From positions 1 to 64,000 of the IMG/VR virus record IMGVR_UViG_3300003876_000001: DNA of 64,000 nucleotides, one strand, 5' to 3'. Source of the stretch: an uncultured virus (IMG/VR IMGVR_UViG_3300003876_000001). Taxonomy: Duplodnaviria > Heunggongvirae > Uroviricota > Caudoviricetes. The notes beneath the pieces were generated by a model. That model saw nothing but the letters and a program-made list of their open reading frames with translations. It was not told the DNA's origin and ran no database searches. Below, piece by piece: positions 7,267-34,469 of the stretch; the stretch's first letter is position 1; every line of letters starts with the position of its first letter. Both the position numbers and the translations under genes were made by a program.

Positions 7267-10200
7267 TTATCCACATTTACTATTACCACATGATACACAT
7301 GTAAGGCAACCTTCTTTATATTCTAAATTATCTGACCCACAATTTGGACATGTACCATTTCCCTTTTCACCATCATTGATGTATTTTTTTATTACTCTAG
7401 CTACACCATTCTTCCAAGTATTTAAATGTTCATCATTTAAGTTAAGTGATTGTATTAAATCTAATACATAGATTATTGGCATACCATGACGTAATACTGA
7501 ACTAATCATTTTAGCATAGTTCCAATATTCTTCATTGAATGTATGATTTAATCCTGTATGTACAGCTTTTTCACCATTAGAATCAACATATTCAATATCA
7601 TATCTTTTAATACCATTTTCATCTCTTACTTTAACAACTTCACATTCAATAAGACTTGTAGGTAATTCAGATAAACCATTTTGCATACGACCAGTAAAAA
7701 CTTCATATGGTCTTCCATCCATCATACCAACAACACCAATCCATTTTTCAAGATTATTTTGAAATCTTATAATTTCAGCTTTTAATCTTTTAGGTCTTTT
7801 AGGTGCATGATTATCTTTAAATAACTTATCTTTTTCTTTCTTTTTCTTTTCTGTTTCAGTAACTAAAACACCAGAACGTGAACCATCACGATAAACAGTA
7901 ATTCCTTTACATCCATGTTTCCAACCAGCTTCATATACATTAGCAACTGTTTCTTCAGTTACATCATTAGGGAGATTTACAGTAACTGATATTGAATGAT
8001 CAATATGTTTTTGAACCATTCCTTGCATTTCTACTTTTTTAACCCAATCAACATCATTAGATGTTGCACCGTAATATGGTGAAAGTTTAACTAATTCGTT
8101 AATTTGATCTGAAGTATAGTGTTCAATAATATCTTCAACATCGTAACCATTAACTTCTAACCAAGTAACAAAATTATGATGAAATACTGGATATTCCATC
8201 CAAGTATCACCTAATTCATCGGTAAAATCAACTCTAACGTTTTTATCATTTGGATTTATTTTTCTTCTTCTAGTATAATAAACTAAGAACACAGGTTCAA
8301 TACCTGATGTAGTTTGAGTCATAATAGATACTGTACCCGTAGGTGCTATTGTAAGTAGTGCTAGATTACGTCTACCATACATTACCATCATATCATATAG
8401 ATCAGAGTCTTCGTCTTTTATACGTTGAATAAATGGATTATTTAATTCTCTTTCAGTATCATACATTGGGAAAGCACCTCTATCTCTTGCCATATATACT
8501 GATGAACGATATGCTTCAAGTTTTAATTGTTTATGTACTTCTTCTGAAAATTTATTAGCTTCGTCAGTACCATATGTTAAACCTAATGCAGCTAACATAT
8601 CACCTTCTGCTGTAATACCTAATCCTGTTCTACGACCTCTTTCTGCTTTATCTTTAATACTAACCCAAAGATTTCTTTCGGTTTCTCTAATGTGTAAATC
8701 TTCTGGATCGGAATCTATTTTAGCTAATATTTTATCTATTTTTTCTAATTCAAGATCAATAATATCATCCATTAATTTTTCAGCAATTCTAACATCTATT
8801 TTAAAAGATTCCCAATCAAAAAAAGCATTATCAGTAAATGGATTTACAACGTAACCAAATAAATTAATAGCTAATAATCTACAACTATCATTTGCACATA
8901 AAGGAATTTCACCACAATTATGTGTACTAATCCCATTTGCATCAAATTCATTTTTATCGGGGATTTGACAATCATAAACATTCTCAACACCAACATATTC
9001 AATAGATTTAATAGTATCAACAAATCTTTCTCTATATAACCCCCTATCTAAATTATTTAAAGCATTTTTTAATTTATTTTTTTTACTATTTTCAATAAAA
9101 TTTATTTCCTCTTGGAAGATTAATAGATTATCCTTAGATATTGATAACTCATGTTGTGACTTTGTTTTATACATTTTATACCCACCATTACCATCGGGCA
9201 TTTTTTTATATTGTTCTTCTCTTCTATTTTCATAAACGGTTGAGATAATACCAATTTTAGATAACATTCTTTGTGCCACATATAAATTTTCCAAAATTGA
9301 TGATGCTAGTCTAACGTTAACACCCTTTTCAATATTATTATTTACAGTTCCATCAGCATCAAACCACCCACATAAGAATCCCTTATAAAACTTACTACTT
9401 GCTTTTTCTATTTTATTGTTAATTCTTTTATCATTTAAAACACCATATTCGTATGATAATTTTTTTAAATTAACACTTTTAACTTGTTCGATTTCTAAAT
9501 CATCTTTAGAGTTACCCAAATCCAATCTATATTTTAAATTATTTTTTATACATTCAATAGCATAATTTTTAGTTTCTTTTCTATCTTCACCCCAATATCT
9601 TAAAATTGCGGATTCATTATCGAATGTTCCATCACCTAATAAACTTCCAATTAACCAACCTTCTTCAAAATTTCCTTCTCCATTCCAATTCATCCCAATA
9701 TTGTTGTTAAGATTAATAGTATCACCAATTTGAAAGTTTTTTAATTCAGTCCATTTATATTTCTTATCATTTCTATTTATTTCAAGTACTTGTTTAAATT
9801 CATGATTATCTGTTGACTTTATTTTAAATCCTTTTTTTGTAGTTATTTGAAAAACATCTCTATTTTCACCTGTTATAAAAAAACCTTTATCTGTCGATGA
9901 ATAAAAACCACCATCGACCATTGCGATGAATTTAACACCAATCAATTCTTCAACAGTTTTATTACCTTTATCTGTCATTATGTTCGAATCTAAAGTAAGA
10001 CAAGGGTTTGTTGATATTGTTTTAAAACCTAAATCACTATAACAATCAGGAACAGATTCATTAATTAAAGTATCCCAATATAAAATACCCGGTTCTGCCT
10101 TATCCCATGCATTATGGATAATTTTTTTCCATATTTTAGATGCATTAACTTCTTTAGTAAATGTTGGATTATTAGAATTTATTGGATATTGTTGTGTATA

Positions 10201-10929
10201 GGTTGTGCCTTGTGTAGCAGCTTCCATAAAATCATCATCAATTTTAACCGATACATTTGCACCTGTTACTTTAGTACCATCTAATTTGGCATCAATAAAT
10301 GCTTCAGCATCTGGGTGTTTAATTGAAATAGATTCCATTAAAGCACCACGTCTACCATCTTGTGCAACTTCTCTTGTTGTATTTGAGAACCTTTCCATAA
10401 ATGGAACGATACCTGTTGATGTTAATGCAGAATTTTTTACAGGTGAACCTTCAGGTCTTATAAAAGATAAATCTACACCAACACCTGCTCTTCTTTTTTG
10501 TAGTTGTGCAATTTCCTGATCTAATTTAAAAATACCACCATATGAATCTGCTTCATTTTCATTACCAATTACAAAACAATTTGAGATGGATACAATTTGA
10601 AAATCATTTCCAATGCCTGACATTGGTGAACCTTGTGGAACTATTTTCTTAAAATGTTTGATTTTTTCGTATATTTCTTCAGCGAATAAAGGGTTTGTAT
10701 ATTTCTTTTCTATTCTTGCTAATTCTTTTGCTAATCTCCAATGCATATCATCAGGAGTTTTTTCGTAAAGATTACCATCTGAATCTTTTAAACAGTATTT
10801 GTTTATCCAAACTTCTGTTGCTAAATTATCGCCATTAAAATAGGCTAATGTGGCTTCGTGAATTTCATCTCTTGTATATTTAGAATATACTTTACCCTCT
10901 TTAGGTTGTTCTTCTAAAGTTTCTTCCAT
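7267..10929 (-). CDS. nrdJ: Class II (AdoCbl-dependent) ribonucleotide reductase with intein
   Basis: SNCFV, TNP|CGE, TIAPTGT, KGITVYRDGSR, C-terminal Zn ribbon. Confidence 0.93.
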   Translation of the reverse strand: MEETLEEQPKEGKVYSKYTRDEIHEATLAYFNGDNLATEVWINKYCLKDSDGNLYEKTPDDMHWRLAKELARIEKKYTNPLFAEEIYEKIKHFKKIVPQGSPMSGIGNDFQIVSISNCFVIGNENEADSYGGIFKLDQEIAQLQKRRAGVGVDLSFIRPEGSPVKNSALTSTGIVPFMERFSNTTREVAQDGRRGALMESISIKHPDAEAFIDAKLDGTKVTGANVSVKIDDDFMEAATQGTTYTQQYPINSNNPTFTKEVNASKIWKKIIHNAWDKAEPGILYWDTLINESVPDCYSDLGFKTISTNPCLTLDSNIMTDKGNKTVEELIGVKFIAMVDGGFYSSTDKGFFITGENRDVFQITTKKGFKIKSTDNHEFKQVLEINRNDKKYKWTELKNFQIGDTINLNNNIGMNWNGEGNFEEGWLIGSLLGDGTFDNESAILRYWGEDRKETKNYAIECIKNNLKYRLDLGNSKDDLEIEQVKSVNLKKLSYEYGVLNDKRINNKIEKASSKFYKGFLCGWFDADGTVNNNIEKGVNVRLASSILENLYVAQRMLSKIGIISTVYENRREEQYKKMPDGNGGYKMYKTKSQHELSISKDNLLIFQEEINFIENSKKNKLKNALNNLDRGLYRERFVDTIKSIEYVGVENVYDCQIPDKNEFDANGISTHNCGEIPLCANDSCRLLAINLFGYVVNPFTDNAFFDWESFKIDVRIAEKLMDDIIDLELEKIDKILAKIDSDPEDLHIRETERNLWVSIKDKAERGRRTGLGITAEGDMLAALGLTYGTDEANKFSEEVHKQLKLEAYRSSVYMARDRGAFPMYDTERELNNPFIQRIKDEDSDLYDMMVMYGRRNLALLTIAPTGTVSIMTQTTSGIEPVFLVYYTRRRKINPNDKNVRVDFTDELGDTWMEYPVFHHNFVTWLEVNGYDVEDIIEHYTSDQINELVKLSPYYGATSNDVDWVKKVEMQGMVQKHIDHSISVTVNLPNDVTEETVANVYEAGWKHGCKGITVYRDGSRSGVLVTETEKKKKEKDKLFKDNHAPKRPKRLKAEIIRFQNNLEKWIGVVGMMDGRPYEVFTGRMQNGLSELPTSLIECEVVKVRDENGIKRYDIEYVDSNGEKAVHTGLNHTFNEEYWNYAKMISSVLRHGMPIIYVLDLIQSLNLNDEHLNTWKNGVARVIKKYINDGEKGNGTCPNCGSDNLEYKEGCLTCVSCGNSKCG
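8917..10002 (-). mobile_element. Intein (362 aa) with LAGLIDADG endonuclease in nrdJ
   Basis: Starts CLTLDS after TNP and ends THN before CGE; internal LIGSLLGDG and FLCGWFDADG. Confidence 0.92.
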
Positions 10930-12430: not shown

Positions 12431-12652
12431 TCAAGTATAATCATGGCAACAATCTTCATTTGCTTCAACAGATTGATCCCAATACCATTCACATGATCTA
12501 AATTCTGCTGGATCGTCACCACAACCATAAGAAGTTTCTCTAAATCTAGATTCAACTTCCCATGCTTCATATTCTTCAGGAAAACGACCAACTAACCATC
12601 GATCATTCCCTTCACAAGATACAAATTCAATTTCCCATAATCTAGTTTCCAT
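12431..12652 (-). CDS. Hypothetical acidic protein
   Basis: 73-aa ORF. Confidence 0.5.
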   Translation of the reverse strand: METRLWEIEFVSCEGNDRWLVGRFPEEYEAWEVESRFRETSYGCGDDPAEFRSCEWYWDQSVEANEDCCHDYT

Positions 12653-12657
12653 AATTT

Positions 12658-13095
12658 TTAATTTAATTCATTAACATACCAACTATATTGCGTTGCTGTT
12701 CTTCTCATATGACAATTAGCACAACGCACATCACATTTTTTAATTTCTTTCATTATTGTTTCCCAAGAGTATCCACCATTTGTCATTGTTGAAAGTTGGT
12801 ATTTTTTATTATTAAGATGATCAAACTGTAAAACTATTGGATCATCTTCACCGCAATCTACACATGAATGGGTTGATTTATATTCAAATATCTTTTTTCT
12901 ATTTTCATCAATTCTTCTTTTATTTCCAATACTTATTTGTTTTCTCATTTTTTCATTATTCTCACTATAATATTTTTTTGAATGTGATCTCATACATTCT
13001 TTACAATAGTTATTGTGACCATCTTTACGAGATTTGTTTTTACTAAATTCATCAATCTCTTTTTCATCTTTACATTTACTACATATTTTTTTCAT
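12658..13095 (-). CDS. HNH endonuclease with N-terminal Zn finger
   Basis: CSKC..CKEC, CVDCG, FDH, CANCH. Confidence 0.8.
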   Translation of the reverse strand: MKKICSKCKDEKEIDEFSKNKSRKDGHNNYCKECMRSHSKKYYSENNEKMRKQISIGNKRRIDENRKKIFEYKSTHSCVDCGEDDPIVLQFDHLNNKKYQLSTMTNGGYSWETIMKEIKKCDVRCANCHMRRTATQYSWYVNELN

Positions 13096-13144
13096 ATTAT
13101 CAGCTTTTAAATATAAATACTATTTAAAAACCAAAAGTAACTAG

Positions 13145-13217
13145 TACCACCAGAGGGACTTGAACCCTCAACTCTTCCGTTAAAAGCGGAATACTCTACC
13201 AATTGAGTTATGATGGC
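13145..13217 (-). tRNA. tRNA-Lys(TTT)
   Basis: Cloverleaf; TTCCG-CTTTTAA-CGGAA. Confidence 0.92.
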
Positions 13218-13268
13218 ATATTTTATCTTTATATTGTAACAATTAAAACAATTTAAAGATAATTATTG

Positions 13269-13351
13269 TACATCGGGTGGGATTCGAACCCACGTTGTTG
13301 CGAACAACCCTGATTAAAAGTCAGGTGCATAAGCCTCTCTGCCACCGATGT
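13269..13351 (-). tRNA. tRNA-Lys(TTT) with long variable arm
   Basis: CCTGA-CTTTTAA-TCAGG; V arm GTTGT-TCGCA-ACAAC; perfect acceptor and T stems. Confidence 0.85.
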
Positions 13352-13513
13352 ATTTAGTAATTTTTAGAGATAAGTACCGAAAAACAATACTTTACTCAAA
13401 TTATTACTATATCGCATATCGCAATACACGATATTTGATTATAATATATTAATAATCAACAAATTAAAAATTTTTATTTTGATTTGCGATACACTACACA
13501 ATGTGTAGTGTTG

Positions 13514-13586
13514 TGCATCCGAAGGGAGTCGAACCCTTATCTCGATAATTAAGAGTTACCTACTTTACCAGTTAAGTTACGGATGC
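13514..13586 (-). tRNA. tRNA-Lys(CTT)
   Basis: GGTAA-CTCTTAA-TTATC; acceptor GCATCCG/CGGATGC. Confidence 0.9.
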
Positions 13587-13783
13587 ATAGGAGAACCTCT
13601 ACACACCCGAAAGGGGAAATGTAGAAGGTCTACTGTTTATGTTTAAATTTAGTTCTCATTATATTAATTCTTTATCTTCGAACAAATCTCTTTGTCCATT
13701 AAATTCATTTAAAAGTGTTTGTTCACCTAATCTTGCTCTTACTTTATCAATCCATTCATTTGTTTTTACTTTGGACATCCAAA

Positions 13784-14131
13784 CTAATTCAGCAGCTTTT
13801 CATTTAATTTAATTACAAAAACATTTTTCTTTGAAGTTCTCACCATTAGAAACTTCCTTAATTCTTCAGTTAAACTATTGGTAATATTTGATGTTGCTAA
13901 ATTTTCTATACCGAAAATCTGTAACTGCAATTGCCAAATATCTCTATCCATTAAGCTAAACATTAAATCTCCAATATCCATAAAGAAATCCTTATGAATG
14001 AAATCTATGTCAATCTCTATGTCACCTTCAATAGTTTCTCCATTAACTCTGATTTGCTTTTGGGCAATCCTAGTTTTGAAGTCTTTTGAAAAGACACCAC
14101 TTCCATGCAATATTTCACTTAACCTTACCAT
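13784..14131 (-). CDS. S4-like RNA-binding protein resembling the TyrRS C-terminal domain
   Basis: LSEILHGSGV..IAQKQIRVNGETI and C-terminal FLMVRTSKKNVFVI. Confidence 0.5.
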   Translation of the reverse strand: MVRLSEILHGSGVFSKDFKTRIAQKQIRVNGETIEGDIEIDIDFIHKDFFMDIGDLMFSLMDRDIWQLQLQIFGIENLATSNITNSLTEELRKFLMVRTSKKNVFVIKLNEKLLN

Positions 14132-14315
14132 TATTTTATCATTTTAAATTATCCATAATAATAAATTTTCCAATTATCAGGTAAATATTCTGATAATGGA
14201 ATTATATTATTTTTATCAATAAGTCCTTCATGTACCATTCTATGACAATTTTAATATTGTTTTTTGAACTATATTACTTTTTAATATAGTCTAATTCAAT
14301 TAACAATGTTAATTG

Positions 14316-14396
14316 TTGTACGGAAGGGAATCGAACCCCCATAGCCGAAGCAGCACATTTACAGTGTGCGGAACTCACCACCTGTTCAACCGTACA
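14316..14396 (-). tRNA. tRNA-Tyr(GTA)
   Basis: GCACA-CTGTAAA-TGTGC, long V arm, acceptor TGTACGG/CCGTACA. Confidence 0.92.
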
Positions 14397-14405
14397 ATAT
14401 GGCAT

Positions 14406-14439
14406 AAAAAAACCCTGACTCATTTCTGAATCAGGGTTT
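14406..14439 (-). terminator. Attenuator terminator ahead of tRNA-Tyr/Lys operon
   Basis: AAACCCTGATTCA-gaaa-TGAGTCAGGGTTT plus T-tract. Confidence 0.85.
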
Positions 14440-14461
14440 CTATATTTTAAACTTTATGGCT

Positions 14462-14545
14462 TTAGCCACCAAAGTTAGTACATAGAATACCTGATCCAGT
14501 ATCTGGATAGTTTTTATATTTCTTATATGTATTAACTTTTGTCAT
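14462..14545 (-). CDS. Putative attenuation leader peptide MTKVNTYKKYKNYPDTGSGILCTNFGG
   Basis: 27-aa ORF with TAT AAG AAA TAT AAA AAC TAT run, followed by antiterminator, terminator and tRNA-Tyr/Lys. Confidence 0.75.
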   Translation of the reverse strand: MTKVNTYKKYKNYPDTGSGILCTNFGG

Positions 14546-14644
14546 GATTTCTAATTTATTTTGGTGGTATTACACTACCACCAGTTATGTCTTTTTTACT
14601 TATTATAATATCTTTTTTCATTAATTGTTTACAAAAATCGTTTA

Positions 14645-14675
14645 TAAATACGTAACATGCAAGAAAAAGGTTACA
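14645..14675 (-). promoter_or_regulatory. Phage promoter TGTAAC-N17-CGTATTTA
   Basis: Recurrent motif upstream of the Tyr/Lys leader. Confidence 0.65.
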
Positions 14676-14680
14676 AATTT

Positions 14681-14989
14681 TTAATAAAATTTAATAAAAG
14701 TGTTTAATTCGTTTAAATATAGTTGAATATGTGGGTATTTTTCAATAAATTTTTCTCTTTCATTTTTATTCCCACACACTAATAAATGCTCATAATATGT
14801 ACTCATTTCAGTTGGGAACATATGTATCGTCCACTTACGGATTTTCTTTCCCTTACTATTGTAGAGATGCTTTCTTGGTATAAATCTATATACTTGTTTT
14901 TTGAAGAACCATAAAAATCTTTCAGTACTTTCAAATCTCAAATATGCTTTATTATTATGTTTATATATAGTGTATTCTGTTAGTTCCAT
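14681..14989 (-). CDS. Hypothetical protein
   Basis: 102-aa ORF preceded by TATATTTG. Confidence 0.55.
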   Translation of the reverse strand: MELTEYTIYKHNNKAYLRFESTERFLWFFKKQVYRFIPRKHLYNSKGKKIRKWTIHMFPTEMSTYYEHLLVCGNKNEREKFIEKYPHIQLYLNELNTFIKFY

Positions 14990-15081
14990 TTTTTTATTTA
15001 TCTACAAATATAAATACTTTTATATCTAATGTAAAATACTATAAAATGAAAAAGGAGCGAATTATCGCCCCTTTATTTTTA

Positions 15082-16179
15082 CTAATTTTCATACCCATCT
15101 CTAAATGGTGTTGACCAGTCTGGTTTAATCATTTTCCAAATTGCTTCAGAATAATTTTTATTATTATACATAGAAAATAATAATCCAGAATGTTTAAATT
15201 CTTTTGCTATTAAAGCAAATTCTTTCTTTCTTTCAAAAGGATCAAATCCATTTTTCAAACTAACTAAATTAGTTACCCTAACGAATTCACGTAATGTTTC
15301 AACTTCAATTTCAATATACATATCATTTAAACCCTTTTCAGTACGTCTAACCCAATTGTAGAATTCATCAGGAACTCTATCAATAACTTCATCCAATCCT
15401 TCACCATTTTTCAATGATTCCCAAATTGTCTTATTAGATACGTTAGTAACGATTCTATGTAATCTGCAATATTCATCGAATTTTACTTTTACACGGAAGC
15501 CATTAGAATAACGTACAACAAATCCTTCTTTGTTATCTTCTTCTAATTCCTTTAATTTAGAAATATCAGATGTTACATCATACTTTTCAACAATAGTAAA
15601 TTCATCAGAGTGATTATACACCATATCATCATATGACATTTCATCACCACCATCAGTATTGATAACACCTAAAAGAACCAAATCTTCAGTCTTACCATAA
15701 TCAATAACAATACGATTTTCAGGATATATAATTTCAAATACATATGTATTATCACCATTTAAAAATCTATAAGAATTTTCAATATTAAGCATGATTTCAC
15801 CACCTTTAATGGCTTGTTCTGATTCAAATGAACCTCTTGAAGCAAATATCCAATCACCTTCATAATTAAATAAAATACCCAATGAACCATCCATTTTTTC
15901 AAATGCTTCAAATGATAAATCAGTTGGAATATCAGAAGGATCGTGTTCTTCTAAATTGAAGAATTTTTTCATGCTTCGACCAACAATATTACCATCGATG
16001 TCAACAAAAAGTCCACGACAAGATAATGTAATTAAATCCCATTCCTTTTCAAATGCACATGTTTTAGAATAATTTAGAACCCATATATCTTTAGTTGGGT
16101 GTTTATTAGTAATTAATAAACCCTTTTCAATATATTCATTAATAACACTCCATTCTATTTTAGTAAGTATTTTTTCCAT
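15082..16179 (-). CDS. rnlA: T4 RNA ligase 1-like (RnlA)
   Basis: CRGL, KKFFN, EKMDGSLG, SRGSF, FEII, EGFVV, KVKFDEY. Confidence 0.9.
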   Translation of the reverse strand: MEKILTKIEWSVINEYIEKGLLITNKHPTKDIWVLNYSKTCAFEKEWDLITLSCRGLFVDIDGNIVGRSMKKFFNLEEHDPSDIPTDLSFEAFEKMDGSLGILFNYEGDWIFASRGSFESEQAIKGGEIMLNIENSYRFLNGDNTYVFEIIYPENRIVIDYGKTEDLVLLGVINTDGGDEMSYDDMVYNHSDEFTIVEKYDVTSDISKLKELEEDNKEGFVVRYSNGFRVKVKFDEYCRLHRIVTNVSNKTIWESLKNGEGLDEVIDRVPDEFYNWVRRTEKGLNDMYIEIEVETLREFVRVTNLVSLKNGFDPFERKKEFALIAKEFKHSGLLFSMYNNKNYSEAIWKMIKPDWSTPFRDGYEN

Positions 16180-16387
16180 TTTTCTTATTATATTTATAAT
16201 TATATACAGTCCTTTTATTAATATTAAGTTTTTCTGCTATAATTTTTGGTTCTACATTTTCATTTAATAAATTATCTATTTTTCTATTTAATAAACCATA
16301 TTTATAATATTTTGTCTTAGTTAAATAATTTTTTTTAAAGTCAATATATTTTTTATATTTAGGACTATCAATATATATTGGGTCATT

Positions 16388-16795
16388 CTATAACCAATCA
16401 CTAAATTCAATTCCTATTTTACCCAAAAATTTAATTTCATAAAATTTATTATTAACTTTTCTTAGTTTAGGTTTTGTAGGTAATAAATTTATAATACTAT
16501 CTTTAAAATCTTCATTACCAAAAAAACTAATATAATAATAGTCAGTTGTTGAACTATTATATATTCCAACACAACCATCACCCTCAACATAACCCTGTAA
16601 AAATTCATTAAACAATGCAATGTTATTATATTTATACGTAAAACTTTTGTTTGGGGTTACATTATGTTCATTTAATTTTGTAACCATATTTTTTGATGTA
16701 ATAGTGATTGAATGTGCTAATTCATGTGTTGTTTTTTTGTGATATATTTTACCATCATATTCCAACCATTTTTGAACCATTTCAATTAATTTCAA
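16388..16795 (-). CDS. LAGLIDADG homing endonuclease fragment
   Basis: FLQGYVEGDG motif; appears truncated or frameshifted. Confidence 0.6.
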   Translation of the reverse strand: MKLIEMVQKWLEYDGKIYHKKTTHELAHSITITSKNMVTKLNEHNVTPNKSFTYKYNNIALFNEFLQGYVEGDGCVGIYNSSTTDYYYISFFGNEDFKDSIINLLPTKPKLRKVNNKFYEIKFLGKIGIEFSDWL

Positions 16796-16848
16796 ATCAT
16801 TATCACCTATAAATACTCTTTCAAATTAAAAATATTATAAAATGGTTA

Positions 16849-17343
16849 CTATCTTTTAGGTCTTATTTGGTGGATAATTCTTTTTCCTTTAAAGACTATA
16901 TCCAAATTAAATATACCAATATCTATAAGTTCGTTTAAGAATTTAAATAATACTTCCTTACCTCTATCTTTATGTGCAATTTCTCTTCCTTTAAAGAATA
17001 CATGTATGTTAATTACACTTCCCTTTTCAAGAAATTTTCTAGCTTGTTTTACTTTTACATTCAAATCATTGTCAGTAATATTTGGAGTAAATTTTATTTC
17101 TTTTAGTTTTGGAGAACTACTTTTCTTTTCATTCTTTTTTTGATTATATGTGAATTTATTATAATCCATAATCTTACAAATAGCAGGTGACTCGTTTGGA
17201 TTTATTAATACCAAGTCTAACCCTTCTGTATTTGCTAAATTTAATGCTTCGGCAGTTGGTATAATATTATTTTCATAAATTTGATGTCCTACTAATCTAA
17301 TTTCAGAGCCTCTTATTCTTTCATTAAGAATATGTTTTTTCAT
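16849..17343 (-). CDS. infC: Translation initiation factor IF-3
   Basis: NERIR, GLDLV, CKIMDY, KEIKF, FKGRE. Confidence 0.95.
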   Translation of the reverse strand: MKKHILNERIRGSEIRLVGHQIYENNIIPTAEALNLANTEGLDLVLINPNESPAICKIMDYNKFTYNQKKNEKKSSSPKLKEIKFTPNITDNDLNVKVKQARKFLEKGSVINIHVFFKGREIAHKDRGKEVLFKFLNELIDIGIFNLDIVFKGKRIIHQIRPKR

Positions 17344-17352
17344 TTATTTTAT

Positions 17353-18396
17353 TTACTTTAAATACTCATATTTCTTAAAAACAAATATTGGTTCATATTT
17401 AAATGCTGATGTTCTATTTTTCATGTTTGGATTTGATAATGCCAATTTTAATGTGTCAACATGTTTAAATCCACAACTAATTGCTGTATCGATAGTTGCT
17501 TGTTCTAGTGAAATATTGTTATTTTTCTTTGAGTCAGCAATATTAATTAACATGTGTCCATTATTTTTTAAACCGTAATAACAATTATTAAAAGTGTTTT
17601 TTAAAAAACCACTAACCCAATCTTGTTTATTACTATATTTAATATAGCTTTGACTATCTTCATCCGAATATTTTTCTAAATCAAAATATGGTGGAGATGT
17701 AAAACATAAATTTAATGAATTTTTTTCAGGTATAAATATTTCACTACCTTGTGCTGATAAAACAAATTCCATATTAACACCAACTTTTGATATTAATTTA
17801 GATAAATCAACCAATCCAAGAAATGTTTTTATTGATGGTTCAGTTGTAATATATTTCTTAACGCTACTTATCGCAGCACCAAGCATTCTACCTCCCCAAC
17901 CACCAGACATATCCCATACAACACCATTAGCTGCATATTTATCATATATTGCTGCTGCTGCTGTTGGTCTAAAATTAGAAACACCTTGTGTATTGGTAAA
18001 CATTTTTAACATTTTTCGAATTCCAGCATCTGAAATAAATGTTCCTATTTGTAATCGTTTACTAATCACTTCCATAAAAAAATCATCATTATTAAATACT
18101 TCTATGGGTGTTTTTTTATTATTACATTTAACATCAAATGAGTGTGGAAAGTATGACCATGCAAGACCAAGACCATGCATTGTTTGTTTAACAATTCCAT
18201 TTTCAATTAATTCAGAATAATTATATTTTTGAAGTTTATTAAATTCCCTTTTACGATATTCATCATCCGTTGGATAATATGGAAATCCATTCTCACAATA
18301 GTATTTAAAAATTTTTGTTTGATATGATAATAATTCAATTTCTGTCATATTCACCCAATGTGATTTGTTTTTAAAGATTTCTGATTTATTAATCAT
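17353..18396 (-). CDS. DNA methyltransferase (amino-MTase type)
   Basis: SNFRP, DMSGGWGGR SAM-binding motif, FTSPPY. Confidence 0.82.
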   Translation of the reverse strand: MINKSEIFKNKSHWVNMTEIELLSYQTKIFKYYCENGFPYYPTDDEYRKREFNKLQKYNYSELIENGIVKQTMHGLGLAWSYFPHSFDVKCNNKKTPIEVFNNDDFFMEVISKRLQIGTFISDAGIRKMLKMFTNTQGVSNFRPTAAAAIYDKYAANGVVWDMSGGWGGRMLGAAISSVKKYITTEPSIKTFLGLVDLSKLISKVGVNMEFVLSAQGSEIFIPEKNSLNLCFTSPPYFDLEKYSDEDSQSYIKYSNKQDWVSGFLKNTFNNCYYGLKNNGHMLINIADSKKNNNISLEQATIDTAISCGFKHVDTLKLALSNPNMKNRTSAFKYEPIFVFKKYEYLK

Positions 18397-18486
18397 TTTA
18401 TTCTATATTTTATTATATATTTTTTTATCATTTTATAAAATTTTACATAAGAAAAATAAGTATTTATTTTTATATAATCTAAACTT

Positions 18487-18744
18487 ATGAAACTAAAAAA
18501 ATACATATTATTTTTATTATTATTATTATTACCATATTCATGTGTTACATTAAAGAAAACAAATAAATATCCAATTAATTCTGCATGGTATTATGATGAT
18601 GGTGATCATCGTATTATTGTTTATATTGATCGTATTTCAATTATCGAAGGTATATTAATTAGGGATACTAAAGTTAGAAATGATAGTATGGTCTTTGGTC
18701 GAGTTAATAGAAAGTATTTATATCCTATTGTCATTGTAGATTAA
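18487..18744 (+). CDS. Putative lipoprotein
   Basis: Basic N-terminus, hydrophobic stretch, YSC lipobox-like. Confidence 0.5.
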   Translation: MKLKKYILFLLLLLLPYSCVTLKKTNKYPINSAWYYDDGDHRIIVYIDRISIIEGILIRDTKVRNDSMVFGRVNRKYLYPIVIVD

Positions 18745-19241
18745 ATAAAATATTTTGAAGGTACTTCTTCTGTTAAATATATTCCATTTTCAGATTTATA
18801 AAATTCATAACCATCTTTATTCAATTGTTTTGCATCAATAGTAATCATCCAAATTTTATTTTGATATTTGGCATATCTCATTCCTACCGAATATGCAGTT
18901 TCTCTATTATCTGTTAAATGAACATGATTTCTATTCATTTTATTTAAACCACTCTTATGTATTTTTTCAGCATTAGCTATTGTAGTACCATGATATAATA
19001 AATCTGGTGGTAATATTCTTTTCATTTTAAGATCAACATCAATAGAATGTCCTTGTGCTGCACGTATCATTGTTTCATCAGCATTAAAACTAAATCTTTT
19101 TTTATCATTATTATCGATAATCCACTTGAGATCAGTAATTGTGATTTCAAGTTTATTTATTAATTCATCAACTAAGACATAACCTTGAGAATCAAGATTT
19201 AAATCTTCTTTCTCTGGTTTATGTCTTAATAATAATGACAT
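18741..19241 (-). CDS. kptA: RNA 2'-phosphotransferase (Tpt1/KptA)
   Basis: LRH, KKRF, IRAAQGHS, LYHGT, RNHVHL. Confidence 0.93.
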   Translation of the reverse strand: MSLLLRHKPEKEDLNLDSQGYVLVDELINKLEITITDLKWIIDNNDKKRFSFNADETMIRAAQGHSIDVDLKMKRILPPDLLYHGTTIANAEKIHKSGLNKMNRNHVHLTDNRETAYSVGMRYAKYQNKIWMITIDAKQLNKDGYEFYKSENGIYLTEEVPSKYFI

Positions 19242-19270
19242 ATATCATCCTTTATCTTTTAAAAATTTAC

Positions 19271-19540
19271 TCATGTTAAAAACCCAATTACCATTAAAAG
19301 ATTTTCTCTATTATATGGTATGTTTTCTGTTATAGTAACATAATTTTGATTATCGTCCATAGTATCAATATTAATCATTGCTTTATTTTGAAAATCTTGG
19401 ACATCTATTAGGCATTTACCTAGAACGAAATGTTTAATTTTTTTTGTATACCAAACCCCTAAATTATCATCAAAACCATCTTTTTTAAAACCTAGTGATT
19501 TTAAAAATTTTATTTCTTTTTTGTTATTTTCTATTACCAT
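19271..19540 (-). CDS. Hypothetical protein
   Basis: 89-aa ORF. Confidence 0.5.
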   Translation of the reverse strand: MVIENNKKEIKFLKSLGFKKDGFDDNLGVWYTKKIKHFVLGKCLIDVQDFQNKAMINIDTMDDNQNYVTITENIPYNRENLLMVIGFLT

Positions 19541-19580
19541 AATTCAAAAATACATAAATCTCCTGACAATTGCAAGAGAT

Positions 19581-20228
19581 TCAGAAATTAATTATAATGC
19601 CTGATCTAACAGGATGATATCTACCATCTAAAACAGATGCACATATATGTGTAGTCTCACCAACTACTCTAGTCCCATACATCTCATGTATATGACCAAA
19701 TACATGATATTTAGGCTTCACTCTTTCTTGAATTGTTTCAAGAAGATAAGGACACCCTACACTTCCACCATTTTTATAATCAACCCAATCCAAAATACCA
19801 TTGGCAGGACCGTGAGTGATTAGAAAATCAGTATCATCAGGAATTGCATCCCAATGCTTTTTGATTTGTTCTTCGTCACGCATAAATGCCCAATTGAAAA
19901 ATGGTGGTGTCATAGGTGAACCCCAAAACTTAATTCCTTCAATCTCTACTCCAGAATCTTCAAGATAATGGATTTCACTATCTTGAATCATATCAAGCAT
20001 AGTATATCTGTTAAAATTATCAAGACCTTTATCGTGATTTCCTGCAATCATTATTTTATATTCAATATCAAGATTCTTAAACCAAAACATAAATTCATTC
20101 ATTTCATGAATTGCACCTACATTAGTTAGATCACCTGCATGAATTATCATATCAACTTTAGGGAGGGGGAAGATTTTTTCCCATGCTTTGTGTAGTCCAT
20201 GACTATCACTAATTAATAATATTTTCAT
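19581..20228 (-). CDS. Metallophosphoesterase
   Basis: SDSH, HAGD, GNHD, THGP, FGHIH. Confidence 0.92.
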   Translation of the reverse strand: MKILLISDSHGLHKAWEKIFPLPKVDMIIHAGDLTNVGAIHEMNEFMFWFKNLDIEYKIMIAGNHDKGLDNFNRYTMLDMIQDSEIHYLEDSGVEIEGIKFWGSPMTPPFFNWAFMRDEEQIKKHWDAIPDDTDFLITHGPANGILDWVDYKNGGSVGCPYLLETIQERVKPKYHVFGHIHEMYGTRVVGETTHICASVLDGRYHPVRSGIIINF

Positions 20229-20435: not shown

Positions 20436-20885
20436 ATACAAATATAGTTTAAAAATTTTTAAAAAGAAAGAAGAATTAATCCCCCTTCTTATATGCTAAC
20501 CAATAACGTTTTCTATCCATCTTTGGATCAAATACTAAATCGGAATAATAACTATCTGATACATTATATTTTTTATGATTAATGTTCCAATTATTTCTAA
20601 GAAACTTCTTTATTTGGAAATTTGATTTAGCACCTCTAAATGGATCGTGCATAAAAATGATTTAATATCATTCTAATACATGCACATCCACAAGTATAAT
20701 TAGTATCTTGACTATAAAGGGGGAGAGGAATCACCGATAAATTCTATTCGTGATCCGCAAAAGGTGATTAACCTTGTTCGATTAACGAGATAGAAAAACG
20801 TGAAGTTCTCAACGAACCTGTAACAGTATTTAACATGTATTCCGCTTCCAAGCGGTATGTTATTTTTCATATTCTTATAGTTTAG

Positions 20886-20969
20886 TAGCGAGTGAAGGAC
20901 TCGAACCTTCGTAAACCCGTAGGGACTCTACCTTATGAGGACAGCGAGATGCCACTTCTCCAACTCACG
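20886..20969 (-). tRNA. tRNA-Met(CAT), initiator-like, long variable arm
   Basis: C1xT72 mismatch, A11-T24, CTCATAA loop, 17-nt V region. Confidence 0.8.
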
Positions 20970-23033: not shown

Positions 23034-23102
23034 TATATTACAAATATACGTAAATATTTTTAATATGTTACAATTTTCTTATTTATTTTTAATTCTTTTT
23101 AG

Positions 23103-23188
23103 TAGCGAGTGAGGGATTCGAACCCCCGTAAACCCCGTAGGGACTCTGGCTTATGAAACCAGCGAGATACCAACTTCTCCAACTCACA
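23103..23188 (-). tRNA. tRNA-Met(CAT), initiator-like, long variable arm (paralog)
   Basis: T1xT72 mismatch, CTGGT-TTCATAA-GCCAG, V arm AGTCCCTACGGGGTTTAC. Confidence 0.8.
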
Positions 23189-26324: not shown

Positions 26325-26479
26325 CTAACTAAATAGGATTCGAACCTATGACCCCTTTCGATATTTGCTTCTCGTAATCAGGGTAATTGTTTCCGTTCAT
26401 GAGCAAAAGATAAAGAAGTTCACCCTCTATCAATCATATAGAACTAGACATCCGCATTAAGCCACTCTGCCATTAGTTA
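26325..26479 (-). tRNA. tRNA scaffold with 83-nt anticodon loop
   Basis: TAACTAA/TTAGTTA, D arm GCAGAGTGGCTTAATGC, stem GATGT/ATATC, T arm ATAGGTTCGAATCCTAT. Confidence 0.6.
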
Positions 26480-27342: not shown

Positions 27343-27352
27343 ATGACCAGTG

Positions 27353-27424
27353 CGGAACATAGGGGAATCGAACCCCTACCCTATGAGTGATAGTCATATA
27401 TCCTAGCCGTTAGACCAATGCTCC
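27353..27424 (-). tRNA. tRNA-Asp with ATC anticodon
   Basis: TATGA-CTATCAC-TCATA; GGAGCAT/ATGTTCC, G73. Confidence 0.8.
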
Positions 27425-27931
27425 GTTTATATTTCAAATATACGTAAACTTTTTTAAAAGGTTACATATTAATGTAAATAAATTTCAAAATCTTTAAAAA
27501 TTTTAACAACTTCTTTACGTTTTAGTTTTTTATCTTTTCTACTATAAAAATGATAATATTTATTATTTAATAATTTAACAAATCCCATTTTATTAAGAAT
27601 GCCACCATATACTTCAGTACATTTATCTGTTGCATCTGTATGTGCACTAAAACAAACATAATCAAAAGATTTAAGTTCATCATTGTAAATATTACTAATT
27701 TTTCTAATTAATTTAATCAGTTTTACTTACATATGTACTTCTTTTACTATTAGAAGATTTGGTTGTAATTAATATACTAGGCATTGAAATTTTAATATTA
27801 CCATATTGAAATATTAAATGGCTTATTTGATATTCAATATCTTCATATTTAAATCTACATATTTCTTTATCAACCATATATTTATAATACGTAAACTTTT
27901 TTAAAAGGTTACAATTTATTTAAAAATTTTG

Positions 27932-30389: not shown

Positions 30390-30416
30390 AAAAAACCCAA
30401 TCTGTTAGGATTGGGT
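30390..30416 (-). terminator. Attenuator terminator ahead of tRNA-Ala/Glu/Val/Asp operon
   Basis: ACCCAATC-ctaaca-GATTGGGT plus T-tract. Confidence 0.85.
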
Positions 30417-30444
30417 CTTCAATTTCGTTTGGATGTTTTAGTAG

Positions 30445-30532
30445 TTAAACTAATTCACCTTCTCCTGAAGACCCTAGACACAAATCGTCCACCTCAACTG
30501 CTTCCGCAACTAATTGTTCTTGAATTCTTCAT
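30445..30532 (-). CDS. Putative leader peptide ...IQEQLVAEAVEVDDLCLGSSGEGELV (1 nt out of frame with the ATG)
   Basis: Nine consecutive GNN codons at 30510..30484; antiterminator GGGTCTTCA at 30474..30466. Confidence 0.6.
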
Positions 30533-33788: not shown

Positions 33789-33872
33789 ATGAAAAGATTA
33801 GTTAACATAGTAGGTCAACCCCAACCGCAGCATCAACATCAGATGTTGAACGGGGAGAATATGTCTAGTTAA
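33789..33872 (+). CDS. Putative attenuation leader peptide MKRLVNIVGQPQPQHQHQMLNGENMSS
   Basis: 27-aa ORF with CAA CCC CAA CCG CAG CAT CAA CAT CAG run, followed by antiterminator, terminator and tRNA-Pro/Gln/His. Confidence 0.8.
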   Translation: MKRLVNIVGQPQPQHQHQMLNGENMSS

Positions 33873-33897
33873 CTATTGTAATTATAATAATTAATAG

Positions 33898-33932
33898 AAC
33901 CCTGTTCACATCAAAATGAACAGGGTTTTTTT
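33898..33932 (+). terminator. Attenuator terminator ahead of tRNA-Pro/His/Gln operon
   Basis: AACCCTGTTCA-catcaaaa-TGAACAGGGTT plus T-tract. Confidence 0.87.
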
Positions 33933-34155: not shown

Positions 34156-34169
34156 CTTATAACTTTTCA

Positions 34170-34236
34170 TATATGAAAGGTAGCATTGTCGGGTCGTGAC
34201 CCCGAAGGTATGGATTCGATTTCCATTAAACACCCA
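34170..34236 (+). pseudogene. tRNA-His(GTG)-like, 5' acceptor strand missing
   Basis: TCGGG-TCGTGAC-CCCGA; ATGGA-TTCGATT-TCCAT. Confidence 0.55.
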
Positions 34237-34398: not shown

Positions 34399-34469
34399 TC
34401 CCATATGGGGTAATAGTAACTCGCAACACTTTGAATGTTGAGCCATAGGAGCGTAACCTATTATGGGTG
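34399..34469 (+). tRNA. tRNA-Gln(TTG), atypical T loop
   Basis: CAACA-CTTTGAA-TGTTG; T loop AGCGTAA. Confidence 0.78.

Follow-up and report, generated by a model that had tools for sequence, protein, structure and literature searches.

A probable leader-peptide attenuator ahead of tyrosine and lysine tRNA genes in an uncultured phage

What decides when a phage transcribes its own transfer RNA (tRNA) genes? Phage tRNA genes have so far been explained by compensation for codon usage and, lately, by escape from tRNA-cleaving defences; to our knowledge, their regulation has hardly been addressed. The question is raised by a minus-strand locus of an uncultured virus of the Caudoviricetes (IMG/VR record IMGVR_UViG_3300003876_000001), in which a short open reading frame (ORF) rich in Tyr and Lys codons is followed by an intrinsic terminator and then by one tRNA-Tyr and three tRNA-Lys genes. 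The window, by which we mean the whole stretch of DNA analysed, is the first 64 kb (64,000 nucleotides, nt) of this 138,979-bp record (G000, 42% complete). Positions 12500-16500 of the window recur without a difference in a complete viral contig of 325,854 bp, G001, and the guanine-plus-cytosine (GC) content in this phage is 27.9%. Our best reading is that a known mechanism, ribosome-mediated attenuation, is here applied to tRNA genes and senses the supply of their own products. On the sequence evidence, we put the probability that the locus is a ribosome-mediated (leader-peptide) transcription attenuator controlling a phage tRNA operon at about 80%. The computational case is made up of the ORF with its codon run, the competing helices and the terminator, the conservation of these parts, and the recurrence of the same design at other arrays and in a cultured phage. 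The reading is strong because of the sibling leaders and the relatives, not because of the Tyr/Lys run alone.

The elements of the leader and the genes that it may control are as follows.

14545..14462, minus strand: leader ORF (leader 1), 27 codons, MTKVNTYKKYKNYPDTGSGILCTNFGG, with its ATG at 14545 and its stop codon at 14464..14462
14527..14507, minus strand: control run TAT AAG AAA TAT AAA AAC TAT (YKKYKNY), Tyr and Lys codons with one Asn
14494..14508, minus strand: small hairpin AUCCAG-AUA-CUGGAU, whose 3' arm overlaps the antiterminator 5' arm
14480..14499, minus strand: antiterminator 5' arm CUGGAUCAGG-UA-UUCUAUGU, within the ORF
14426..14445, minus strand: antiterminator 3' arm AUAUAGAA-AC-CCUGAUUCAG, overlapping the terminator 5' arm
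14439..14410, minus strand: intrinsic terminator AAACCCUGAUUCA-GAAA-UGAGUCAGGGUUU, 13-bp stem, with seven T at 14412..14406
14315..14396, minus strand: tRNA-Tyr(GTA), after a 9-nt spacer from the T-tract
13659..14131, minus strand: two ORFs (115 aa and 39 aa) between the tRNA-Tyr and tRNA-Lys genes
13586..13513, minus strand: tRNA-Lys(CTT)
13351..13268, minus strand: tRNA-Lys(TTT), 84 nt, with a long variable arm
13217..13144, minus strand: tRNA-Lys(TTT)

An earlier note, made from the letters of this DNA, had described the leader ORF and its control run, and both lie where it had placed them. The start context of the ORF is A-rich and has no Shine-Dalgarno sequence. The long ORFs of this phage begin in the same way; their upstream regions are A-rich, and GGAG precedes 1 of 93. 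Tyr or Lys is encoded by six of the seven run codons, ahead of tRNA-Tyr and three tRNA-Lys genes. The tRNA-Tyr gene was said to begin 10 nt after the T-tract, and its first base, 14396, is indeed the tenth. The Lys(CTT) gene and the two Lys(TTT) genes claimed downstream are likewise present.

How could translation of this ORF control a terminator? The 214 nt at 14610..14397 are highly structured, with a minimum free energy (MFE) of -58.6 kcal/mol (z = -6.57; 0 of 200 shuffles as stable). Within them, ATCAGG-TA-TTCTATGT (14495..14480) is complementary to ATATAGAA-AC-CCTGAT (14445..14430), which overlaps the terminator 5' strand. This pairing, also claimed earlier, was confirmed, and on folding its outer helix extends to 10 bp (CUGGAUCAGG, 14499..14490, with CCUGAUUCAG, 14435..14426). 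The antiterminator (10 + 8 bp) occupies 11 of the 13 bases of the terminator 5' arm, making the two structures mutually exclusive. The terminator has an energy of -18.9 kcal/mol when folded with its tail and -19.2 in the terminator scan; it is the strongest site on either strand in that scan, which covered 12-35 kb for hairpins followed by a T-tract. The stop codon of the leader falls in the loop enclosed by the two antiterminator arms, and the small hairpin at 14508..14494 is placed like the 1:2 pairing of classical attenuators.

When the RNA was cut before the terminator 3' arm, the MFE fold was the antiterminator, at -34.4 kcal/mol. With a ribosome stalled at any of run codons 1-5, the antiterminator remained the MFE structure and 11 of the 13 terminator 5'-arm bases stayed paired; stalls at codons 6 and 7 lowered this pairing to 10/13 and 7/13. 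Without ribosomes, the in-silico default of leader 1 is the antiterminator. For each leader, 2000 dinucleotide shuffles served as controls for how well the ORF region complements the terminator 5' arm; 24 of them did as well as leader 1. Folding of truncated RNA replaced equilibrium folding with ribosome masks as the test of the switch; in the latter the terminator persisted in every state.

In the proposed mechanism, transcription would start at a phage promoter motif near 14677..14636 and a ribosome would translate the 27-codon leader. With charged tRNA-Tyr and tRNA-Lys plentiful, the ribosome would run through 14499..14480 and reach the stop codon in the antiterminator loop. The antiterminator arm would then be unable to pair, the terminator (14439..14406) would form, and polymerase would halt 9 nt before tRNA-Tyr. 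If Tyr or Lys decoding were slow, the ribosome would stall at 14527..14507, the antiterminator arm would pair with the terminator 5' strand, and polymerase would continue into tRNA-Tyr, the two small ORFs and the three tRNA-Lys genes. The new tRNAs would relieve the stall, giving negative feedback on tRNA supply. The shortage itself might arise from the codon demand of an AT-rich phage, from loss of host tRNA or from host anticodon nucleases.

The candidate start site belongs to a motif that recurs across the phage genome.

14636..14677, minus strand: promoter-like motif TTTGTAACCTTTTTCTTGCATGTTACGTATTTATAAACG, of the phage-wide GTAACCTTT...ACGTAT type, kept in the relative L126
14673, 27464, 27911 and 31043 (minus strand), 61717 and 81334 (plus strand) of G000: examples of promoter-motif sites

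The core TAACCTTT has 16 occurrences in the 139-kb record, most of them ahead of genes, and a CGTAT-type box usually comes after it. At most sites the core is extended to TGTAACCTTT and followed after ~10-13 nt by ACGTAT(A/T)T; presumably, the motif may be related to the Bacteroidota TAnnTTTG box. It precedes leaders 1, 3 and 4 of this phage. At leader 1 it lies in the gap that separates the leader from the end of the upstream gene at 14681. An internal promoter driving tRNA-Tyr had been named earlier as evidence against attenuation, and from the leader start to tRNA-Tyr neither a consensus promoter match nor the phage promoter motif was found. There is no room for a separate tRNA-Tyr promoter, because 9 nt separate the T-tract from the tRNA and no promoter matches there. 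Further downstream, scans for a terminator-like hairpin or the phage promoter motif found none between 14315 and 13144, and the tRNA-Lys genes are probably co-transcribed with tRNA-Tyr, as we infer from this arrangement.

Does the same design recur where other tRNAs are encoded? ARAGORN finds 22 tRNA genes in the window and Rfam 21; G001 has 49 tRNA hits. Codon-matched leaders stand at all four multi-tRNA arrays of the phage, as seen in G001, and each comprises an ORF, an antiterminator arm inside that ORF, a stop codon in the loop and a terminator.

33789..33872, plus strand: leader 2 ORF, MKRLVNIVGQPQPQHQHQMLNGENMSS, 27 codons, run QPQPQHQHQ
33834..33848, plus strand: leader 2 hairpin, 6 bp with a 3-nt loop, equivalent of the leader 1 small hairpin
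33847..33855, plus strand: leader 2 antiterminator arm UGAACGGGG, within the ORF, mimicking the terminator 3' arm
33897..33925, plus strand: leader 2 terminator, with seven T at 33926..33932
30390..30532, minus strand: leader 3, window copy, run VAEAVEVDDLCL, antiterminator GGGUCUUCAG/UUGAAGACCC, terminator 30416..30390
L118:1831-2012 (G001:C1:144330-144511): leader 4, 41 codons, MKNNNTYISRISNLLTSSICGNGTFNGRRAKIGSNVDIVIS, with run NNNTYISRISNLLTSSICGNGTFNGRR

Leader 2 precedes tRNA-Pro, Pro, a weak His-like gene (34163-34234, 29.8 bits), Gln, His and a Gln-like gene (34399-34469; called by Rfam, not by ARAGORN). Stretches in which nine of nine codons are Pro, Gln or His occur at just 2 sites in the 139-kb record. 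Unlike in leader 1, upstream pairing holds the antiterminator arm of leader 2. Leader 3, heading the large minus-strand array (Cys-like, Ala, Glu, Leu, Val, Trp, Asp, Met and more), is intact in G001 (L129, L131), where it reads MKNSRTILNTNMEAMLWSVAEAVEVDDLCLGSSGEGELV; it has the run MEAMLWSVAEAVEVDDLCL, and the leader as a whole uses all eight array amino acids. The window copy has 32 nt fewer, the frame is shifted, the ATG frame stops early as MKNSRTISCGSS, and the frame of the run is left with no ATG. The shorter copy may reflect an assembly error, or else a genuine variant whose switch is changed. An ATT or GTG start for it was considered and dropped, since G001 shows a normal ATG frame and the window a 32-nt deletion. 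Leader 4 has its own antiterminator and terminator, and its Asn, Thr, Ile, Ser, Arg, Leu, Gly and Phe codons serve nearly every anticodon of its array. That array of 21 tRNAs (Thr, Gly, Leu, Ile, Asn, Phe, Ser, Arg) is present in G001 only, not in the partial record, and has one promoter-like motif and one strong terminator in 9 kb.

Antiterminator complementarity in leaders 2, 3 and 4 was matched by 4, 3 and 10 of 2000 shuffles. The longest run of each leader fits its own array best; the exception is a 12-residue stretch in the 3' half of leader 1, which fits the broad array-4 set. Taken together, the four arrays serve all 20 amino acids. Over-represented in the leaders are codons seldom used in phage genes (CCC 3%, CCG 2%, CAG 5%, GCG 2%, CGA 2%, CTC 1%, AAG 13%), which fits sampling of each anticodon. 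Beyond the match to their own arrays, the sibling peptides share no sequence.

Is the leader kept in relatives? Megablast with window 12500-16500 gave zero matches among GenBank phages, and IMG/VR searches by neighbouring proteins or by the tRNA-Tyr 3' end returned G001, the same phage, alone. Two phages with a 48%-identical RNA ligase carry no tRNA near that ligase, and their whole records give 1 and 0 tRNA hits. One 2,917-bp contig, L126, came from a metagenome scan, with 74-94% identity at the nucleotide level. On it, the promoter motif is followed by leader, terminator, tRNA-Tyr, tRNA-Tyr, 115-aa ORF (89% identical, same position), Lys(CTT), long-arm Lys(TTT) and Lys(TTT). The L126 leader, MTTYKTYKKYKTYPDTGSGFVCHDVIIS, has 28 codons and the run TYKTYKKYKTY, in which the Tyr/Lys core persists, AAA and AAG being exchanged synonymously, two Tyr/Lys codons are added and Asn is replaced by Thr. 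The outer 10-bp antiterminator helix is unchanged, and the inner ones form again from a different sequence; none of 2000 shuffles matches the antiterminator complementarity of L126. The terminator differs by a single loop base and the small hairpin by its middle loop base only. Between 14508 and 14489 there are two substitutions, both on unpaired bases (14501 and 14489).

Leader 1 is also covered by contigs of two more metagenomes from sediment, X4 (one contig) and X6 (several). Across codons 1-19 their sole listed difference is AAA>AAG at 14519, a synonymous Lys change. The 3' half of the ORF varies by many substitutions and indels, among which the pair 14486/14439 goes from U-A to C-G. The 5' leader of the window also contains an insertion.

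14556..14621, minus strand: lineage-specific insertion of ~70 nt, with a 21-codon mini-ORF MKKDIIISKKDITGGSVIPPK and a 9-bp hairpin at 14584..14560

The insertion is not needed for the switch, because L126 and one X4 contig (joint 14557->14628) do without it.

A cultured phage has the design as well. Sensitive blastn with the leader and tRNA-Tyr as query found Maribacter phage Panino (PP540027.1), whose host is the flavobacterium Maribacter halichondriae.

L132:1349-1597, Panino: codon-matched leader with a terminator after it
L134:25322-25460, Panino: codon-matched leader with a terminator after it
L134 ~26340-26467, Panino: codon-matched leader with a terminator after it

PANI_CDS0108, annotated as a 33-aa 'hypothetical protein' (MKTKGNTFSWFNYSNCSDCNCGGTGCVCKFDLV), has the run FSWFNYSN and then a terminator. 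Behind it lie tRNA-Tyr, Ser, Ser, Asn, Trp and Phe, of which Tyr and one Ser are unannotated in the record. A second leader, MKTQRLHQELEQPTNIGRDFYGVDGY (QRLHQELEQP), stands ahead of Pro, Glu, Gln, His, Leu, Leu and Arg, and the third, MRAATGIAIIGRTKDKPLGRISVL (run AATGIAIIGRTK), ahead of Ala, Lys, Ile and Gly. The Panino leaders begin right after TTGTATATTTGCAGT. From these leader-array matches it follows that Tyr and Lys codons move with their tRNA genes. The published description of Panino tallies its tRNAs; 'leader' occurs in it 0 times and 'attenuat' solely in the reference list (PMC11590407). Because the design is present in a cultured pair, Panino and M. halichondriae, the idea is directly testable. 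The earlier note's central proposal, a translated leader with mutually exclusive antiterminator and terminator that would gate Tyr and Lys tRNAs, thus finds support in the siblings, L126 and Panino.

Several observations weigh against such an attenuator. By itself the Tyr/Lys run is weak evidence, not significant in a 28% GC genome: 16 sites in the 139-kb record, all six frames counted, have windows with at least six Tyr/Lys codons of seven, and the exact degenerate run pattern occurs in at least 115 viral contigs. A tRNA was present at the locus in 1 of 116 scanned pattern matches, that one from the same phage, and the back-translated heptapeptide was dropped as a probe for relatives because the motif is too common in AT-rich DNA. 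By our own arithmetic, such a window would fall within 150 nt upstream of the tRNA on the right strand with a chance of ~1%. For one codon of the run, AAC (Asn), the operon encodes no matching tRNA. The earlier note had pointed out this codon and the lack of a tRNA-Asn in the array, and both were seen, but the Asn is not conserved, L126 having Thr. As for its proposal to look for tRNA-Asn in the Tyr/Lys cluster of a relative, the L126 array has none, and the tRNA-Asn of G001 lies behind the Asn-rich leader 4.

Folding and gene order add further points on that side. Equilibrium folds of the full RNA retain the terminator at every masked ribosome position; the switch must therefore be kinetic, as in classical attenuators, and our model would need both leader translation and such kinetic control. 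On steric grounds, a ribosome at the stop codon should exclude the antiterminator, yet a static mask at that codon leaves the outer helix standing in silico. The tRNA-Lys genes are 730 nt downstream, their co-transcription being a matter of inference, and a weak consensus promoter match lies just past tRNA-Tyr (14312..14283). A tRNA-Asp gene with the unusual anticodon ATC (27424..27352, minus strand) stands directly behind the promoter motif at 27464 with no leader, so not every phage tRNA is behind an attenuator. Leader 3 is broken in the window, which would mean, should the deletion be genuine, that leaders can be lost. Lastly, no RNA runs containing this DNA were found on record; run X4, labelled RNA-Seq, is probably DNA.

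How else might the locus be read? The switch could be real and yet report on translation in general, through ribosome-polymerase coupling, or on a protein or RNA factor, with the Tyr/Lys codons a by-product of AT richness. Even with no ribosome present, the nascent RNA has the antiterminator as its MFE fold; translation failing for whatever reason would then open the operon, and the 16 sites show how common Tyr/Lys-rich runs are in this genome. However, the leaders of Panino and the siblings of leader 1, three in each case, use the amino acids of their own arrays, including GC-rich codons that composition disfavours, and in L126 the Tyr/Lys run is kept and extended while adjacent codons change. 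We consider a switch indifferent to codon identity improbable. Less probable still, in our estimate, is a chance ORF followed by the ordinary terminator of an upstream transcript, with tRNA-Tyr made by occasional read-through or from an unrecognised promoter. In its favour are the ~1% positional chance of the run taken alone, the still putative promoter types of the phage, and a consensus scan in which promoter-like sites were about as frequent (27) as in shuffles (22.9). Yet a conserved promoter motif follows the end of the upstream gene at 14681, so a terminated transcript would hold the leader alone. In addition, the T-tract ends a mere 9 nt short of the tRNA, each of the four arrays has the same general layout, and frame, run and competing helix are conserved in relatives.

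The peptide itself might instead be what is selected, as a functional micro-protein, with the RNA structures incidental or serving tRNA precursor processing. The segment PDTGSG is the same at the amino-acid level in the window and L126, as such a protein would lead one to expect, but it coincides with the small hairpin and the antiterminator arm. Its conservation is explained by RNA constraint, because both substitutions there fall on unpaired bases. The C-terminal third varies freely, indels included, and the sibling peptides have in common only the match to their arrays. To a micro-protein we give the least credence of all, and an attenuator that reads Tyr and Lys decoding remains the explanation we prefer.

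What would such an attenuator be for? One idea is an inducible counter-defence sensor, in which cleaved host tRNA would stall ribosomes on the Tyr/Lys leader and switch on replacement tRNAs solely upon activation of the cell's defence. The codon content is in keeping with it: of the first 12 codons after the initiator, 11 are Tyr, Lys, Thr or Asn in the window, and all 12 are Tyr, Lys or Thr in L126. The corresponding tRNAs are targets of known anticodon nucleases, tRNA-Lys being cleaved by PrrC. According to one report, a T5-like phage tRNA-Tyr counters retron-Eco7 PtuAB, which degrades tRNA-Tyr, and phage tRNA-Lys counters PrrC170 (PMC11555353). Another has T5 tRNA-Lys, Thr and Asn countering PARIS AriB, which cleaves these tRNAs (PMC12409363). 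Just upstream of the Tyr/Lys operon, at 15082-20228 on the minus strand, lie genes of RNA repair and translation.

16179..15082, minus strand: Rnl1-type RNA ligase
17343..16849, minus strand: IF3 homologue
19241..18741, minus strand: Tpt1/KptA RNA 2'-phosphotransferase
20228..19581, minus strand: calcineurin-like metallophosphoesterase

The locus thus shares with phage counter-defence tRNAs the Tyr and Lys identities and has RNA-repair-type genes (the Rnl1-type ligase, Tpt1 and the metallophosphoesterase) nearby; by analogy, this is suggestive, and no more, of a link to PrrC or other defences. The counter-defence studies describe strong constitutive promoters and nuclease-resistant variants, whereas here a sensing leader is predicted (PMC11555353, PMC12409363). 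General control of tRNA supply is favoured over a Lys-specific defence sensor because arrays for all 20 amino acids have leaders. We regard the defence sensor as unlikely, though a better candidate than any of the three alternatives above.

How does the phage leader compare with known systems? Leader-peptide attenuation of amino-acid operons has been known for about fifty years. The enterobacterial attenuators include trpL, hisL, leuL, thrL, ilvL and pheL, of which the multivalent thr and ilv leaders are nearest. Shared features are a short ORF, predicted here to be translated, a run of regulatory codons, an antiterminator set against an intrinsic terminator, and, on our model, a decision made by ribosome position; sensing of several amino acids by one leader would be common to the thr and ilv leaders and the phage leaders. 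The differences lie in what is controlled and how the parts are placed. Classical attenuators control biosynthesis or synthetase genes, whereas the genes here are tRNAs and two small ORFs, and the molecule sensed, charged tRNA at the A site, would be the product itself, unlike in amino-acid operons. In leader 1, the stop codon lies inside the antiterminator loop and not before region 2, there is no Shine-Dalgarno sequence, and the leader is phage-borne. None of the Rfam models reaches its gathering threshold over the leader: PyrR (RF00515) scores 28.1 against 54, L10_leader (RF00557) 22.5 against 44, and Thr_leader (RF00506) 21.9 bits against a cut-off of 55. These sub-threshold hits are driven by the terminator, and in the window tRNA is the only Rfam family to pass.

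The pheM leader of Escherichia coli pheST is a case of leader-peptide attenuation of a gene of the translation apparatus that senses the cognate charged tRNA. It is chromosomal and controls a synthetase protein, in contrast to the tRNA genes behind the phage leader. A Phe-rich leader before the E. coli tRNA-Phe genes pheV and pheU was considered as a precedent and discarded, there being no such ORF upstream of either gene in K-12. T-box riboswitches resemble the proposed phage attenuator in having translation-related targets and a choice between terminator and antiterminator that depends on the condition of a given tRNA. They make contact with the uncharged tRNA itself, by way of a specifier codon and the T-box sequence, and work independently of translation. 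In the window, no T-box matched at the gathering threshold, nor in 14380..14720 up to an E-value of 10. We found no account of leader-peptide attenuation of tRNA genes in the literature searched, which did not extend to subscription journals and old scans, where an older account is possible.

If the reading is correct, the phage has a self-measuring feedback: translation of the leader would gauge whether a given set of tRNAs is in short supply, and in that case alone would the set be transcribed. Leader-peptide attenuation would be extended to genes whose product is the sensed molecule. An annotation rule would also follow, by which small 'hypothetical proteins' before tRNA arrays, such as PANI_CDS0108, would be regulatory leaders.

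Some features of the region stand apart from the switch. Of the two ORFs between tRNA-Tyr and the tRNA-Lys genes, the 115-aa product matches no Pfam or PHROG family and the 39-aa product no Pfam family. The UUU-anticodon tRNA with a long variable arm has a shape normally found in Leu, Ser and Tyr tRNAs, and the same form is present in L126 (L126:2696-2778). The large subunit of ribonucleotide reductase, at 7267-10929 on the minus strand of the window, is split by an intein with a LAGLIDADG domain. Three CAT-anticodon tRNAs of 85-88 nt, called Met by ARAGORN, lie at 20885-20969 and 23102-23188 of the window (minus strand) and at 136529-136616 of G000 (plus strand). Their length suggests a long variable arm, and no obvious codon-matched leader lies upstream of the one at G000 136529-136616. 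A CUA-anticodon tRNA of the amber-suppressor type, labelled tRNA-Pyl by ARAGORN, is encoded at L119:1218-1288 (G001:C1:157717-157787).

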